Shown here: one piece after another, positions 32,098 to 60,252 of the stretch
How positions within the stretch are numbered: the first letter of the stretch is position 1
Layout of the letters: every line of letters begins with the position of its first letter
Assembly (NCBI GenBank): GCA_035289165.1
Contig: DATDYA010000008.1
Location: 572-64,571 of the forward strand
Length of the DNA: 64,000 bases
Source of the DNA: Patescibacteria group bacterium
Lineage (GTDB): Bacteria > Patescibacteriota > Patescibacteriia > Magasanikbacterales > GWA2-37-8
Reading direction: 5' to 3'
Notes under the pieces: model-generated
Told to the model about the DNA's origin: nothing
The model's input: only the letters and a program-made list of their open reading frames with translations
Database searches by the model: none
Position numbers and translations under genes: made by a program

Positions 32098-32550
32098 ATG
32101 AAAATTAGAGATATTTTAGATCAAAAGATTGTCACGGTTCGAAAAGATACGACGTATGAGGAGGCGGCGAAGATTTTGCTCGACAACGAAGTGACGGGTG
32201 CTCCAGTTGTAGACAGTGAGGGAAAGTTGGTGGGCATAATCACGGAGAAAGATATTTTTAAAGTTCTTCTTCCGTATTACCAGAGTTATTACGAACACCC
32301 GGAGTATTATACTGACCTCGAAGAGCGAGAACTAAAGGCAAAAGATATCCGGACCATGAAAGTAGAAGTTTTCATGAGTAAGAACATTTCTAGTATTACT
32401 CCAGATGAACCAATCATGCGGGCTGGTGCCATAATGCTTGCGAGAAAAATCGGTCACCTACCAGTTGTTGAAAATGGCAAGTTGGTTGGAGTAGTTAGCG
32501 GGACAAAAATATTTCGTTTCGTTTTAAAAAACCAATTAAATAATAATTAA
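32098..32550 (+). CDS. Tandem CBS-domain protein
   Basis: Two CBS repeats (VTVRKDTTYEEAAKILLDNEVTGAPVVD... and VFMSKNISSITPDEPIMRAGAIMLARKIGHLPVV...). The start is placed at MKIRDIL. Confidence 0.75.
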   Translation: MKIRDILDQKIVTVRKDTTYEEAAKILLDNEVTGAPVVDSEGKLVGIITEKDIFKVLLPYYQSYYEHPEYYTDLEERELKAKDIRTMKVEVFMSKNISSITPDEPIMRAGAIMLARKIGHLPVVENGKLVGVVSGTKIFRFVLKNQLNNN

Positions 32551-32753
32551 AAGCGCAAAACTTGTTATCACCAAGGATTTCGACTAATCATCGAAGGCGC
32601 TAGAGAAAGAACCCGTTTACGGGCTAGAATCTCTCGGGCAAGCCCGTAAAAGCTGTTAATTAAGGCCACTTTGGCAAAGCTAGGATGGTACCACCTTTTT
32701 GAGGTTCCTGGCAGACCAAGTGGTATTTTTATTTAAAAAATAACAATTAATAT
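32551..32753 (+). promoter_or_regulatory. Putative T-box leader of ileS with an Ile AUC specifier in a terminal loop and a T-box-like sequence UAGGAUGGUACCACC
   Basis: Hairpin 32579-32595 (TTCGA / TCGAA) has a terminal loop CUAAUCA containing AUC followed by A. AGCTAGGATGGTACCACC at 32678-32695 matches 13 of 18 positions of the T-box consensus AAUUAGGGUGGNACCGCG, with UGGU placed to pair with an NCCA end. A downstream TACCAC...GTGGTA pairing is followed by T5 (32726-32730). Additional short hairpins lie at 32612-32623 and 32635-32646. Confidence 0.45.
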
Positions 32754-35732
32754 ATGTATAACTCCAACAAAGAAGAATTAGAAATATTAAAGTATTGGGA
32801 TGAGCATCAGATATTCGAAAAGTCTGTTAGTGAACGACCAGAAGACAAGCCGTATGTTTTTTATGATGGCCCACCTTTTGCAACTGGGTTACCACATTAT
32901 GGTCACATGGTCGCTTCACTTATTAAAGATGTTGTACCGCGCTATTTTACCATGCGTGGTTTTAGAGTTGAACGTCGGTGGGGTTGGGACTGCCACGGCT
33001 TACCGGTAGAAAATATCATTGAAAAAGATCTTAATCTAAATAGTCGGAAAGACATCTTAGATTATGGCATAGATAAATTCAACCAAGCTTGTCGAGCCAC
33101 AGTATTAAAATATGCCGAAGAGTGGAAAAAAACGATTAAGAGAATGGGGCGGTGGGTGGACATGGAAAATGATTACAAAACCATGGACATTTCTTACATG
33201 GAAAGTGTTTGGTGGGTTTTCCGATCACTATGGGATAAAGGTTTAGTATATAAAGGCCACAAAGCCATGCATATTTGTCCACACTGCGTGACGCCGTTGT
33301 CTAATTTTGAAGTGACACAAGGGTATAAAGATATAAAAGATATTTCGGTAACCGCCAAGTTTAAAATAGTAGACAATGAAGAAAAACATCGGATCTTGGG
33401 TGAGAAACTTACTGGTGCAAATTTGTATATCTTGGCTTGGACAACTACCCCCTGGACCTTGCCGGGCAATGTTTTGTTGGCTGTTAATCGCGAAGTCGAT
33501 TACGATTTAATTTTAAACAAAGACGACCAGAGTTATTATATTCTCGCCTCATCTCGCTTGCCTGTAGTAATGAAAGACAAGGTTGAAGGGGCAGATTTTG
33601 AGGTGATAGGTAAATACGCCGGAAGCGCTCTCGAAGGTTTAAGTTACGAACCACTGTTCCCGTATTTTAAAGATACGGAGAATGCTTTTCGAGTCGTTAG
33701 TGGCGACTTTGTAACCACCGAAGAAGGCACGGGTGTAGTACACATTGCCCCGGCTTTTGGTGAAGATGATTATGCCTTAGGAAAAACTGAGGGTATACCG
33801 CTAGTGCAGCATGTAACCATGGAAGGTAAATTTACTGATGAAGTGGTGGATTTTGCCGGACAAGATGTCAAACCAAAAGACGATCACACTAAAGCAGATG
33901 TAGAAATAATCAAATATCTCGCCAAAGAAGGAAAACTGTTTAGTAAAGAAAAGTTGGAGCACAGCTATCCTCATTGCTGGCGTTGTGATACTCCTCTTTT
34001 AAATTACGCCACTACCAGTTGGTTTGTTTCCGTCTCTAAAATTAAGGAAGAGTTGTTGAAGAATAATGCCAAAACCAGTTGGGTACCGGCCCATGTTAAA
34101 GACGGTCGTTTTGGTTTGTGGCTCGAAGGAGCACGTGATTGGGCGATTTCTCGTAATCGCTATTGGGGCACACCGTTGCCGGTTTGGGAAAATGAAGACG
34201 GCGAGGCTTTGTGTGTTGGCAGTGTCAAAGAACTAGAAGAGTTGACCAGCGAAACTGTTACCGATTTGCACAAAGACTTTGTGGATAACCTTGAAATTAC
34301 CAAAGACGGGGAAATATATCGCCGTATACCAGAAGTACTGGATTGCTGGTTTGAATCCGGCGCTATGCCGTATGGCCAAATGCATTATCCGTTTGAAAAT
34401 AAAGATAAGTTTGAACACGGTTTTCCAGCCGAGTTTATTGCCGAAGGGCAAGACCAAACCCGCGGTTGGTTCTATACTCTACATATTTTGGCTACTGCTT
34501 TAACTAAGGCCGACCATCCGGTCATTGTTCCTAGTGGTGGTATGTCGGCGGATAAATACGGTGTACCCGCCTTCAAAAACATTATTGTCAACGGTATAGT
34601 CTTGGCTGAAGACGGTAAGAAAATGAGCAAGCGTTTAAAAAATTATCCTGAGCCAGGTTTAGTTTTAGAGAAGTATGGTGCAGATGCCATGCGTTATTAT
34701 CTCGTTACTTCTCCGATCATGGAAGCGGAGTTGCTTAATTTTTCTGAGGCGGGTGTTAGAGAGGTTTACTCAAAGCTAATAAATACTTTGTGGAACGTGG
34801 TTGAATTTTATAACCTCTTTAAAGAAGATGCCTCTGGAGTACCAGGAACGAGTGAGCATGTGTTAGATCGTTGGGTACTGGCCAAGTTACAAGTCTTAAT
34901 TAAAGATGTTACTTCTGGTTTAGAAGGTTACAAATTGGTGGGTGCCAGTAGGCCAATTTTAGACTTTGTTACAGAACTGTCTCAATGGTATGTCCGCCGT
35001 TCGCGCGATCGTTTTAAAGGGGATGACAAAGAAGACAAGGCCAAGGCCTTGGCGACTTTAAACCAAGTATTGTTAGCCCTCTCCAAACTAATGGCCCCCT
35101 TCACTCCGTTTATCGCCGAAAAGATTTACCAAGAAGTGGGCGGTGAAAAGGAAAGTGTTCATTTGGAAATGTGGCCAGAGGTGGATGAAAAACTAAAAGA
35201 AGATGGTGTATTAGAAGATATGAAACTTGTCCAAAAAATAGTAGAGGCAGGGCATTTTCTTAGAAAAGAAGCTGGGATCCCTGTGCGACAGGTACTATCT
35301 AGTTTAGAAGTCCCGGAATGTCGTCTAAAAGAAGAACAATATTTTTCTATTATAGCAGAAGAATTAAATTTGAAGACTATTGTTAGTGTGCTAGTATCAG
35401 AACATAGGATTGAAAAGATATTGGAGCATACTCAAGGGCAGCTCCGTATAGCTTTAGATATAGAAATTACCCCTGAACTTAAAAAAGAAGGTCTAGTCCG
35501 TGAAATCGTTCGTACCATTAACCAGCTCCGGAAGAATATGAAATTAACTATTGCCGATCGGGTCGTGGTTGAATACGAAACTGCCGGTGGAGATTTACAG
35601 GAAGTATTCCAAGATAACGGCGAAGAGATTAAAAAATCTGTTCTCGCCACCGAATTACATTCTGGTATAGTCGGTGAAGAGCCGGTTGAGGTTGGTGGGC
35701 AACCCGTTAAAATTAAACTAACCGTTGTTTAA
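32754..35732 (+). CDS. ileS: Isoleucine--tRNA ligase
   Basis: 992 aa with a HIGH-class motif (PHYGH), KMSKRL (KMSKS), an editing domain and a C-terminal zinc-finger-less extension. Confidence 0.95.
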   Translation: MYNSNKEELEILKYWDEHQIFEKSVSERPEDKPYVFYDGPPFATGLPHYGHMVASLIKDVVPRYFTMRGFRVERRWGWDCHGLPVENIIEKDLNLNSRKDILDYGIDKFNQACRATVLKYAEEWKKTIKRMGRWVDMENDYKTMDISYMESVWWVFRSLWDKGLVYKGHKAMHICPHCVTPLSNFEVTQGYKDIKDISVTAKFKIVDNEEKHRILGEKLTGANLYILAWTTTPWTLPGNVLLAVNREVDYDLILNKDDQSYYILASSRLPVVMKDKVEGADFEVIGKYAGSALEGLSYEPLFPYFKDTENAFRVVSGDFVTTEEGTGVVHIAPAFGEDDYALGKTEGIPLVQHVTMEGKFTDEVVDFAGQDVKPKDDHTKADVEIIKYLAKEGKLFSKEKLEHSYPHCWRCDTPLLNYATTSWFVSVSKIKEELLKNNAKTSWVPAHVKDGRFGLWLEGARDWAISRNRYWGTPLPVWENEDGEALCVGSVKELEELTSETVTDLHKDFVDNLEITKDGEIYRRIPEVLDCWFESGAMPYGQMHYPFENKDKFEHGFPAEFIAEGQDQTRGWFYTLHILATALTKADHPVIVPSGGMSADKYGVPAFKNIIVNGIVLAEDGKKMSKRLKNYPEPGLVLEKYGADAMRYYLVTSPIMEAELLNFSEAGVREVYSKLINTLWNVVEFYNLFKEDASGVPGTSEHVLDRWVLAKLQVLIKDVTSGLEGYKLVGASRPILDFVTELSQWYVRRSRDRFKGDDKEDKAKALATLNQVLLALSKLMAPFTPFIAEKIYQEVGGEKESVHLEMWPEVDEKLKEDGVLEDMKLVQKIVEAGHFLRKEAGIPVRQVLSSLEVPECRLKEEQYFSIIAEELNLKTIVSVLVSEHRIEKILEHTQGQLRIALDIEITPELKKEGLVREIVRTINQLRKNMKLTIADRVVVEYETAGGDLQEVFQDNGEEIKKSVLATELHSGIVGEEPVEVGGQPVKIKLTVV

Positions 35733-53500: not shown

Positions 53501-53969
53501 AATATATTAGGTCCATACCTACCTCATGAAACATTTCTTCAGATTCGCTTCCAGCATGGTATTTTTTTTCACAAACAACCTTTTTGATACCAGCATTAAT
53601 GATCATCTTTGCGCAAACTGCACACGGTGTCATTTTACAATAAAGGGTGGCACCATCAATGGCGACCCCTATCTTTGCGGCTTGAACAATCGCATTTTGT
53701 TCGGCGTGAGCAGTGCGGACGCAGTGCTGGCTTTGGTGACCATCTTCGTGAATGGTGGTTTTCATTTGGTGGCCGATTTCATCACAGTGGGGCATACCTT
53801 TTGGCGATCCAACGTAGCCGGTAACAAGGATTTGTTTGTCTTTGGCGATGACACAGCCACTTCGTCCACGATCACACGTGGCGCGTTTTGCAACAGCACG
53901 TGCCACCTCCATGAAGTATTCATCCCAGGTCGGTCGAACGTATTTTTTTATGGGTGTTTGAGTAGACAT
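53466..53969 (-). CDS. comEB: dCMP deaminase (ComEB-type cytidine/deoxycytidylate deaminase)
   Basis: Zinc motifs HAEQNAI and PCAVCAKMI. 167 aa. Confidence 0.85.
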   Translation of the reverse strand: MSTQTPIKKYVRPTWDEYFMEVARAVAKRATCDRGRSGCVIAKDKQILVTGYVGSPKGMPHCDEIGHQMKTTIHEDGHQSQHCVRTAHAEQNAIVQAAKIGVAIDGATLYCKMTPCAVCAKMIINAGIKKVVCEKKYHAGSESEEMFHEVGMDLIYFDENLEQYANQ

Positions 53970-59161: not shown

Positions 59162-60139
59162 TTAAATTTGGATACCAATTATTTTTTTCACTTCTTCCAT
59201 TTTTTTAGTCGCTAACTTTTGGGCTTTGTTTGCACCGGTGGCTAAAATTTCTTTGGCTTCTTTGTCAGATATTTTATTAAATTTGTTTTGGAATTCTTGC
59301 AAGAAGTTTTCAACCACCTCAGCTAATCCTTTTTTAAAGTCACCGTAACCTTGGCCAGCATATTGTTTTTCAACTTCTTTAATCGAAAGCCCGGAGAGTA
59401 GGGAGTAGATGGTAAGCAAATTAGTTAACGCTGGTTTATCTCCTCCAGACGTAACTTCAGTTCCGGAGTCAGTTACTGCCCGCATAATTTTTTTCTTGGC
59501 CACCTCAGGCTCGTCTAAGAGTGAGATATAGTTGTTTACCGAACTGGCGCTCTTACTCATTTTTTTACTGGGGTCATCTAGCGCCAAGATAAGTGCACCT
59601 TCTTTTTTAATTAACGGTTCAGGGATGGTAAAAGTATCGCCATACAAGGAATTAAACCTTCGAGTGACCACCCGTGTCAACTCCAAATGTTGTTCTTGGT
59701 CTTTGCCGACCGGTACCAAGTCCGTGTCATAAAGAACAATGTCTGCCACCATGAGTACGGGATAATCAAATAAACCCATGTTGACATTCTCTTTGTGCGC
59801 TTTGGCTTTGTCTTTAAACTGGGTCATGCGCTCTAGCTCGCTTGTTTTGGTAATAGTGTTCAAAACCCAAGCTAATTCGGCATGTTCTTTAACATCCGAC
59901 TGCTGAAAGATGATGGATCTATTCGGGTCGATACCTAAAGCCACATAAGTTTTAACAACATTTAAAATATTCTCTCGTAATGCCTCTGGTTTTTGGTAGA
60001 CGGTCAAAGCATGTAGGTCAACAACACAAAAAATACACTCATATTCTTTTTGCAAGTCAATCCAGTTTTTTATCGCTCCCAAATAGTTTCCAATGTGTAA
60101 GTTGTTTGTTGGCTGAACGCCAGAAAATACTCGTTTCAT
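59162..60139 (-). CDS. trpS: Tryptophan--tRNA ligase
   Basis: HIGH-class motif (NNLHIGNYLG) and KMSKS (KMSKSASS). 325 aa. Confidence 0.9.
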   Translation of the reverse strand: MKRVFSGVQPTNNLHIGNYLGAIKNWIDLQKEYECIFCVVDLHALTVYQKPEALRENILNVVKTYVALGIDPNRSIIFQQSDVKEHAELAWVLNTITKTSELERMTQFKDKAKAHKENVNMGLFDYPVLMVADIVLYDTDLVPVGKDQEQHLELTRVVTRRFNSLYGDTFTIPEPLIKKEGALILALDDPSKKMSKSASSVNNYISLLDEPEVAKKKIMRAVTDSGTEVTSGGDKPALTNLLTIYSLLSGLSIKEVEKQYAGQGYGDFKKGLAEVVENFLQEFQNKFNKISDKEAKEILATGANKAQKLATKKMEEVKKIIGIQI

Positions 60140-60252
60140 ACAATATTTAAAGTTAACTAAGATAATCTAATTTTAGCAAAAGGCGAGTTAATAAGCAAGC
60201 TGTACAAGACGGTTCATTAGTGTATAATACTTTTACTTAATATTTTAAACAT

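Follow-up and report, generated by a model that had tools for sequence, protein, structure and literature searches.

A putative Class III-type T-box with a predicted terminator in the ileS leader of Patescibacteria

We describe a T-box-like element in the leader of ileS, the isoleucyl-tRNA synthetase (IleRS) gene, of a Patescibacteria group bacterium (GenBank assembly GCA_035289165.1, contig DATDYA010000008.1). The 64,000-nt stretch of this contig that was analyzed is referred to here as the window, and the leader is the 203-nt spacer at 32551-32753 between the stop of a CBS-domain gene (32550) and the ileS ATG (32754). Class III T-boxes are defined by a short Stem I that lacks the double T-loop platform, a specifier in an apical loop, and a dependence on Stem II (PMC10482949), and have been reviewed elsewhere (PMC7583486). 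The element fits this definition and, judged by its sequence, is almost certainly a T-box of this class. As a whole, we consider it probable that the leader is a Class III-type T-box that senses uncharged tRNA-Ile and switches a terminator before ileS; binding of the tRNA, sensing of its charging and regulated termination are the steps we infer.

A conserved T-box leader upstream of ileS

The first-pass annotation of this DNA had proposed a reduced T-box on ileS, and comparison with related leaders bears this out. The closest IleRS relatives of the window (52-78% identity) come almost entirely from metagenome-assembled genomes (MAGs) of Candidatus Magasanikbacteria and other Patescibacteria. 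A related set of 80 Patescibacteria ileS loci was analyzed, and 47 leaders, that of the window included, were examined for fold and specifier. The covariance model R1 was built from relatives only, using a MAFFT alignment (A2) of 26 leaders without insertions. R1 matches the window leader at 76.9 bits with an expectation value (E) of 3.8e-17, as the sole match on both strands of 64 kb, and the resemblance is therefore far beyond chance. At E <= 1e-6 the model also matches 51 of the 80 related ileS loci, all on the same strand and upstream of ileS.

The structure is supported by extensive covariation. When pairs were counted in A2 for a specified structure, 95.3% of cells held standard pairs and 23 of the 31 pairs had changed on both sides; none of 500 shuffles reached any of the five measures, and sliding the 3′ partners by 1-3 columns left 31-59% paired. 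A second alignment comprised 45 leaders including the window, with insert hairpins of 9-30 nt each excised. In this alignment the window's bases pair at nearly all positions, the exceptions being the outermost IIB pair and the upper helix of Stem II, which is gapped there in the window and pairs by eye (CCCG/CGGG). A covariance-model alignment (A3) was rejected for pair counts: it placed the 5′ domain of insert-bearing leaders, the window among them, out of register, and counts were thus taken from A2 and the insert-excised alignment. Alignment with orthologous leaders had been suggested as a check on the first-pass proposal, and it finds the AUC-purine loop, the UGGUACC bulge and all helices conserved with compensatory changes. 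The features of the window leader are as follows.

32552..32556, + strand: 5′ strand of P1, the basal helix of Stem I (AGCGC), pairing with GCGCU at 32597-32601
32557-60, + strand: junction AAAA between P1 and the specifier hairpin
32561..32575, + strand: probable specifier hairpin CUUG-UUAUCAC-CAAG, with AUC at 32567-32569 and then the purine A at 32570
32576..32577, + strand: GA dinucleotide, GA or AA in most relatives, equivalent to G25-A26 of N. farcinica T99 (see below)
32578..32596, + strand: insert hairpin UUUCGA-CUAAUCA-UCGAAG with a 7-nt loop at 32584-32590, which meets P1 and the specifier hairpin in a three-way junction
32597..32601, + strand: 3′ strand of P1 (GCGCU), partner of 32552-32556
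32602..32634, + strand: Stem II, with lower helix AGAGA/UCUCU (32602-06 with 32630-34) and upper helix CCCG/CGGG (32612-15 with 32620-23)
32607-11 and 32624-29, + strand: putative S-turn strands of Stem II, AAGAA and CUAGAA, flanked by the lower and upper helices
32635..32656, + strand: Stem IIA/B pseudoknot, CGGGCAAGCCCGUAAAAGCUGU, including the F-box-like CCCGUAA
32635-38 with 32643-46, + strand: IIA, CGGG/CCCG, 95-97% paired (95.0% in the 45-leader alignment)
32640-42 (loop) with 32653, 32654 and 32656, + strand: IIB, 73-78% paired (73.1% in the 45-leader alignment)
32658-64, + strand: linker AAUUAAG, conserved in the family
32665-75, + strand: Stem III, GCCA-CUU-UGGC, optional in the family
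32676-78, + strand: purine run AAA after Stem III
32679..32712, + strand: antiterminator (discriminator), comprising A1, a 7-nt bulge and A2
32679-85 with 32706-12, + strand: A1, GCUAGGA/UCCUGGC, 99.2-99.6% paired (99.6% in the 45-leader alignment)
32686-92, + strand: T-box bulge UGGUACC, invariant and always UGGU
32693-97 with 32701-05, + strand: A2, ACCUU/GAGGU, 96-98% paired (98.3% in the 45-leader alignment)
32687..32734, + strand: terminator alternative, a predicted helix of GGUACCAC (32687-94) and GUGGUAUU (32720-27) that overlaps the U-tract UUUUUAUUU (32726-34)

The antiterminator is common to the family: all 47 leaders feature an A1 helix of 5-7 bp, the 7-nt bulge UGGUACC and an A2 helix, and both A1 and A2 show compensatory changes. 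In 46 of the 80 related loci, the 400 nt preceding ileS contain TGGTACC, always with UGGU. The T-box core sequence with UGGU recognized in the first-pass annotation is present, corresponding to UAGGAUGGUACCACC at 32681-32695. The UGGU sequence would fit the A73 discriminator of bacterial tRNA-Ile.

Upstream of the antiterminator, the lower helix of Stem II is paired in 98.5-99.1% of cells (99.1% in the 45-leader alignment), with compensatory changes in all five pairs. The strands AGAA and (A)GUAGA vary little or not at all in the family and match GAAGAA...CAGUAGAA of T99; in the window, and likewise in its closest relative L001 (78% IleRS identity), the bulged G is replaced by C to give AAGAA/CUAGAA. 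Stem II therefore appears to bear an S-turn, as judged by sequence and the flanking covarying helices rather than by a three-dimensional motif. Within the pseudoknot, two of the four IIB pairs show compensatory changes, and IIB covaries among relatives as UAGG/CCUA, GUGG/CCGC, AAAG/CUUU and UGGU/ACCA. Stem III, where present, varies compatibly by eye (CCAC/GUGG, UCAC/GUGA, CUACA/UGUAG). The P1 helix was also assessed by eye, where relatives show the compensatory variants AGC/GCU, GGC/GCC, GAC/GUC, AACCU/AGGUU, UGCGU/ACGCA, GACU/AGUC and AUCUG/CAGAU; automatic alignment leaves its 5′ strand out of register and 60% paired, hence P1 covariation holds by eye only.

Specifier position and Class III identity

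Stem I is short. The ~50 nt before Stem II accommodate only P1 along with the specifier hairpin and a single insert hairpin, and neither a long Stem I nor a distal double T-loop platform is present. In at least 44 of the 47 leaders, the first hairpin after P1 (4-8 bp) has a 7-nt loop in which positions 3-5 are AUC and the next base is A (G in two), and most of the remaining leaders have this hairpin in slightly altered form. Covariation is seen in the stem (cuug/caag, cccg/cggg, ccug/cagg, gccg/cggc, gugg/ccac, cugg/ccag and others), which is paired in 97.8% of cells of the 45-leader alignment (97.8-98.1% over both alignments), with compensatory changes in three of the four pairs. The window's version, 32561-32575, is identical in L001. 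The AUC followed by A at 32567-32570 is an isoleucine codon that matches the regulated gene, with a purine next.

The first-pass annotation had placed an AUC specifier in the terminal loop of a different hairpin. That hairpin, with its CUAAUCA loop, is present upstream of ileS at 32578-32596, and an AUC-purine apical loop is indeed conserved in the family; the specifier, however, most likely lies in 32561-32575, whose AUC-bearing 7-nt loop is 20 nt upstream of the loop first chosen and had been missed. At the position of the downstream hairpin, 18 of the 45 leaders carry an insert hairpin of unrelated sequence. In an nhmmer comparison with the intact window, a hidden Markov model (HMM) of the family aligns the upstream hairpin to the specifier and treats 32578-32596 as a 21-nt insertion, and it scores the leader at 39.6 bits with the downstream hairpin removed vs 29.7 bits with the upstream hairpin removed. 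Family conservation and this HMM preference of ~10 bits very probably place the specifier at 32567-69. The second AUCA loop (32584-32590) may be a coincidence, and a redundant specifier is also possible; by our own estimate, the chance of AUCA in a given 7-nt loop is ~1-2%. An alternative is that the same T-box reads the AUC of the insert hairpin, or that the two hairpins act as redundant or dual specifiers in a three-way junction. The insert hairpin does have a 6-bp stem and a 7-nt loop with AUC then A, it lies directly against the P1 3′ strand and Stem II in the way that the specifier hairpin of insert-free relatives does, and the covariance model put the specifier region on it, thereby avoiding an insertion. 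Yet AUC occurs in this loop only in the window and in none of the 17 other insert-bearing relatives, L001 among them; it sits at loop positions 4-6 rather than the 3-5 of the family, and the HMM prefers the upstream hairpin. We therefore regard this alternative as improbable.

The GA dinucleotide that follows the specifier hairpin may have a kink-turn (k-turn) role. By eye, the 3′ GA/AA and the A just before the hairpin are conserved, and the G expected at k-turn position 1b is found only in some relatives (L047 GUC-GA, L020, L038); in the window the junction reads AAAA and is a three-way one. The insert position may resemble a k-junction topology.

The assignment to Class III was assessed against the leader T99 of N. 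farcinica (PDB 6UFM), with its sequence as given in the PMC10651847 supplement. The decoding half of the family, as an HMM, scores T99 at 23.7 bits (E 7e-7; HMM 15-94, T99 10-96), compared with -1.8 bits for the best of 500 shuffles. Pairwise identity to T99 was also tried and then replaced by the HMM score, as under lenient gap settings shuffled sequences average 63%. T99 is colinear with the family throughout its basal helix (GGC...GCC), its specifier hairpin (CCGG-CCAUCA-CCGG, then GA), its S-turn (GGAAGAAC/CAGUAGAACC) and its pseudoknot (CGGGUGAGCCCCGUCACAGCUCG). The colinear segments run ...CCGGCCAUCACCGGGGAGCC...GGAAGAAC...CAGUAGAACC...CGGGUGAGCCCCGUCACAGC in T99 and ...CCGGCCAUCACCCGGGGAGCU...GGAAAAAA...AAGUAGACCC...CGGGCAAGCCCGUUAUCGC in the related leader L044.

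Like the Class III ileS leaders of N. farcinica (PDB 6UFM) and Mycobacterium tuberculosis (PDB 6UFG), the element precedes ileS and displays an AUC+A specifier in the apical loop of a Stem I that is short and lacks the distal double T-loop platform. It likewise has GAA/AGUAGA S-turn strands in Stem II, an IIA/B pseudoknot of compact form (CGGGnnnGCCCGUnA) and a discriminator with the bulge UGGN-ACC. It differs from them in several respects. Its hosts are Patescibacteria (Magasanikbacteria and relatives) rather than Actinobacteria, and its platform is a hairpin with a U-run, which would be transcriptional, whereas theirs usually, although not universally, sequesters the Shine-Dalgarno sequence. 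The apical loop is written here as 7 nt and theirs as 5-6; the base of Stem I is A-rich or forms a three-way junction with an extra hairpin, in place of a clear GA/GA k-turn; and Stem III is optional. With Class I transcriptional T-boxes (Bacillus subtilis tyrS; RF00230), the element shares the S-turn in Stem II, the IIA/B pseudoknot with its F-box, the T-box antiterminator, a putative competing intrinsic terminator and an aminoacyl-tRNA synthetase gene as the target, but it lacks their long Stem I, specifier internal loop, AG bulge and distal platform for the tRNA elbow. Class IV T-boxes (Actinomyces odontolyticus ileS; PMC10482949) also regulate ileS, with a reduced Stem I that lacks the platform and a dependence on Stem II; set against these, the specifier here lies in an apical loop.

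Expression platform and proposed mechanism

Downstream of the T-box, the alternative pairing TACCAC (32689-32694)/GTGGTA (32720-32725) with a following U-run, as reported in the first-pass annotation, is present and extends to 8 contiguous pairs, GGUACCAC/GUGGUAUU, with UUUUUAUUU next; none of 200 shuffles reaches 8. This helix is conserved in L001 and overlaps the T-box bulge and A2. A hairpin with a U-run is found in 46 of the 47 leaders, the U-run beginning 3-31 nt after A1. Two terminator designs can be distinguished. In design 1, found in 14 leaders with the window among them, the T-box bulge itself is the pairing partner of the 3′ strand. A further 23 leaders instead feature a local hairpin, GGCACG...CGUGUU, after A1 (design 2), which shares only 2-3 nt with A1, the shared bases being the bottom pairs beside the U-tract. 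Classical T-box terminators use the 3′ strand of the antiterminator, unlike the window, where the 5′ strand of the terminator is the T-box bulge itself. The hairpin and U-run suggest that transcription is attenuated, whereas Class III T-boxes usually control translation, and we consider control by termination likely.

In the mechanism that we propose, the decoding module, comprising P1, the A-rich junction, the AUC-A apical loop, the S-turn and the IIA/B pseudoknot, would bind the GAU anticodon of tRNA-Ile, with the Stem II S-turn clamping the anticodon on AUC. If the tRNA is uncharged, its free ACCA-3′ end would pair with UGGU of the bulge and stabilize the A1/A2 antiterminator. If it is charged, the bulge would stay free, and GUGGUAUU could pair with GGUACCAC, that is, with the bulge and the start of A2; the resulting hairpin beside the U-tract would stop transcription before ileS and probably before the following gene, epmA. 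In design 1 leaders, the tRNA 3′ end and the terminator strand would thus compete for the same bases.

Several results weigh against this account. Folding of the two alternatives, also suggested alongside the first-pass proposal, predicts a terminator (-8.7 to -9.0 kcal/mol) weaker than the antiterminator (-13.2 kcal/mol). This order is the reverse of that described for glyQS (PMC11297988), which makes the proposed switching logic tentative. Terminators across the family are short, with a median near -7 kcal/mol, and 23 of 46 relatives show an overlap with A1 of no more than 2-3 nt. The window displays AUC in two hairpins. No sigma-70-like promoter was recognized by a scan upstream of the window leader (32480-32550). 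A tRNA-Ile gene that could confirm the GAU anticodon and A73 was found neither in the window, where tRNA-Asn is the only tRNA, nor in 110 loci scanned. Lastly, the Rfam T-box model RF00230, which had been named as the first check on the proposal, gives no match in the window at gathering score or even at E <= 10 (two sub-windows), nor at gathering score in 16 related loci. We attribute this negative to a model built around a long Stem I, not to the absence of a T-box. In L018, the one relative tested below threshold, RF00230 scores 16.9 bits vs a cut-off of 93, and aligns the S-turn, F-box and T-box sequence correctly with Stem I marked as missing. Four weak matches to other Rfam families in the window (two microRNA families, the trpB motif and SpR19) were far below their cut-offs and were taken as chance.

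Three further explanations were weighed. The leader could be a Class III T-box acting on translation initiation as in Actinobacteria, with the downstream hairpin serving as sequestrator, and the weakness of the predicted terminator is compatible with this. Such control is nevertheless unlikely: UUUUUAUUU directly follows the window's helix, as a U-run follows the hairpin in 46 of the 47 leaders; the distance from T-box to start codon varies from 54 to 321 nt across leaders; and no Shine-Dalgarno-like sequence was found in or beside the window's alternative helix, where 32735-32753 reads AAAAAAUAACAAUUAAUAU. It is more unlikely still that the leader is a decayed or constitutively open relic, in which the antiterminator always wins and no tRNA-dependent switching occurs. 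The predicted energies and the minimal terminator overlap in many relatives would suit a relic; purifying selection on the AUC, UGGU, S-turn, pseudoknot, and hairpin with U-run, down to ~52% IleRS identity and with many compensatory changes, argues strongly against it. Finally, the lack of an Rfam match could be read as the sign of a chance resemblance or of an unrelated structured leader, e.g. a protein-binding site. The R1 match, the strong covariation and the colinearity with a crystallized T-box effectively refute this, leaving it a negligible probability.

Lineage, gene neighborhood and related leaders

A literature search found no paper linking T-boxes with Patescibacteria or the candidate phyla radiation (CPR), and the one Patescibacteria perspective found to mention riboswitches concerns synthetic ones only. 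Gene regulation in this group has been described as virtually unknown (PMC11665869), and TBDB applied its short-Stem-I T-box model only to Actinobacteria (PMC7778990). On the present evidence, this new lineage carries a Class III ileS T-box that Rfam leaves unannotated and whose platform appears to be transcriptional. Because the whole family escapes the Rfam model, it is missing from genome annotation of these lineages; the present alignment and model could serve as the seed of a new one.

A transcriptional short-Stem-I T-box is probably not unprecedented, since Sherwood et al. in their 2015 abstract are said to describe "many", not all, of the reduced actinobacterial ileS leaders as translational. 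A conserved tRNA-Ile sensor would mean that the charging of one tRNA or more is monitored in these bacteria of reduced genome, and would constitute a native RNA switch for a group without genetic tools. The pairing of a Class III decoding module with an intrinsic terminator would also offer a natural test of whether anticodon-only recognition is fast enough for co-transcriptional decisions. More speculatively, these observations could be joined into a single picture: a large Patescibacteria clade of minimal T-boxes invisible to Rfam, with Class III decoding, transcriptional control and a bulge-competing subtype in the window, whose module is shared with Actinobacteria alongside type-2 ileS through ancient descent or transfer. 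We hold this combined picture to be doubtful. If true, it would matter, as transcriptional T-boxes are considered to need their long Stem I to capture tRNA rapidly during transcription.

The genes downstream of the leader are as follows.

32754..35732, + strand: ileS, the regulated gene, encoding a type-2 isoleucyl-tRNA synthetase of 992 aa
35736..36773, + strand: epmA/genX, encoding an elongation factor P (EF-P) lysine aminoacylase (TIGR00462, 300.8 bits; cut-off 286.9)

The ileS product scores 927 bits against TIGR00392 (cut-off 621) and contains the Pfam domains tRNA-synt_1, Anticodon_1 and, in its tail, DUF5915; it is of the type-2 kind and similar to MupA/MupB. The epmA/genX gene starts 3 nt past the ileS stop and is probably co-transcribed with it, and hence under the same T-box control. 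A near-consensus promoter (TTGACA-N15-19-TAnnnT) ends 3-15 nt before the leader in 22 of 26 relatives (L002-L080, ~10-50 nt upstream). As in the window, no promoter was recognized by the scan upstream of the L001 leader, which points to transcription reading through from the CBS-domain gene, or to a divergent promoter, in these two cases.

Within the 64-kb window the T-box is restricted to ileS, whose leader alone combines TGGNACC, an antiterminator fold and an IIA-like motif. The sequence GGGTGGCACC at 53648 was considered as a T-box and rejected, as it lies inside overlapping open reading frames. The trpS gene (59162-60139, - strand) has no T-box-like element in the 113-nt upstream spacer (60140-60252) that it shares with a divergent gene.

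To survey the wider family, metagenome contigs were scanned for the IIA/B string CGGGTAAGCCCGTAA, and the resulting loci were searched with R1. Further ileS leaders, confirmed by tblastn, were recovered from L155, L137, L140/L090, L107, L113, L128 and L157. Reduced, T-box-like leaders with an apical loop were also found on other synthetase genes. L085 (1350-1486, - strand), upstream of a tryptophanyl-tRNA synthetase (TrpRS) gene, has UGG in the apical loop, a UGGC bulge and the start AAAAGCGCUAAAA as in the ileS family. L142 (1015-1148, - strand), upstream of a seryl-tRNA synthetase (SerRS) gene, features the loop CCUCCAA, with UCC then A, and again a UGGC bulge, which is also present in L126 (90-184, + strand), upstream of an aspartyl-tRNA synthetase (AspRS)-like gene, where the 5′ end is cut off. 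In L085 and L142 Stem II is a plain hairpin without the S-turn, and all three share the IIA/B sequence. If the combined picture above were true, these trpS, serS and aspS leaders would be evidence that further amino acids have come under the minimal architecture.

The relatives also include many third-party annotation (TPA) MAGs labeled "uncultured Gammaproteobacteria" whose IleRS is 60-78% identical to that of the window, several of which (L001, L002, L004, L005) share the leader with named Magasanikbacteria MAGs; these labels look like placeholder or wrong taxonomy. Two GC-rich (0.58-0.59) metagenome leaders match the family model, namely L128 (8745-8905, + strand) and L116 (1936-2087, + strand). 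The former, upstream of ileS, has a longer Stem I with two AUC motifs (CCGGCUACAUCAGUAGGAAUCACCGG) and may be Class IV-like, and the contig of the latter ends before any downstream gene. Long-Stem-I T-box leaders were encountered as well in L122 (5462-5868, - strand) and L099 (11052-11831, + strand), in which a tRNA-Tyr(GUA) gene lies between the T-box sequence and the first long open reading frame.

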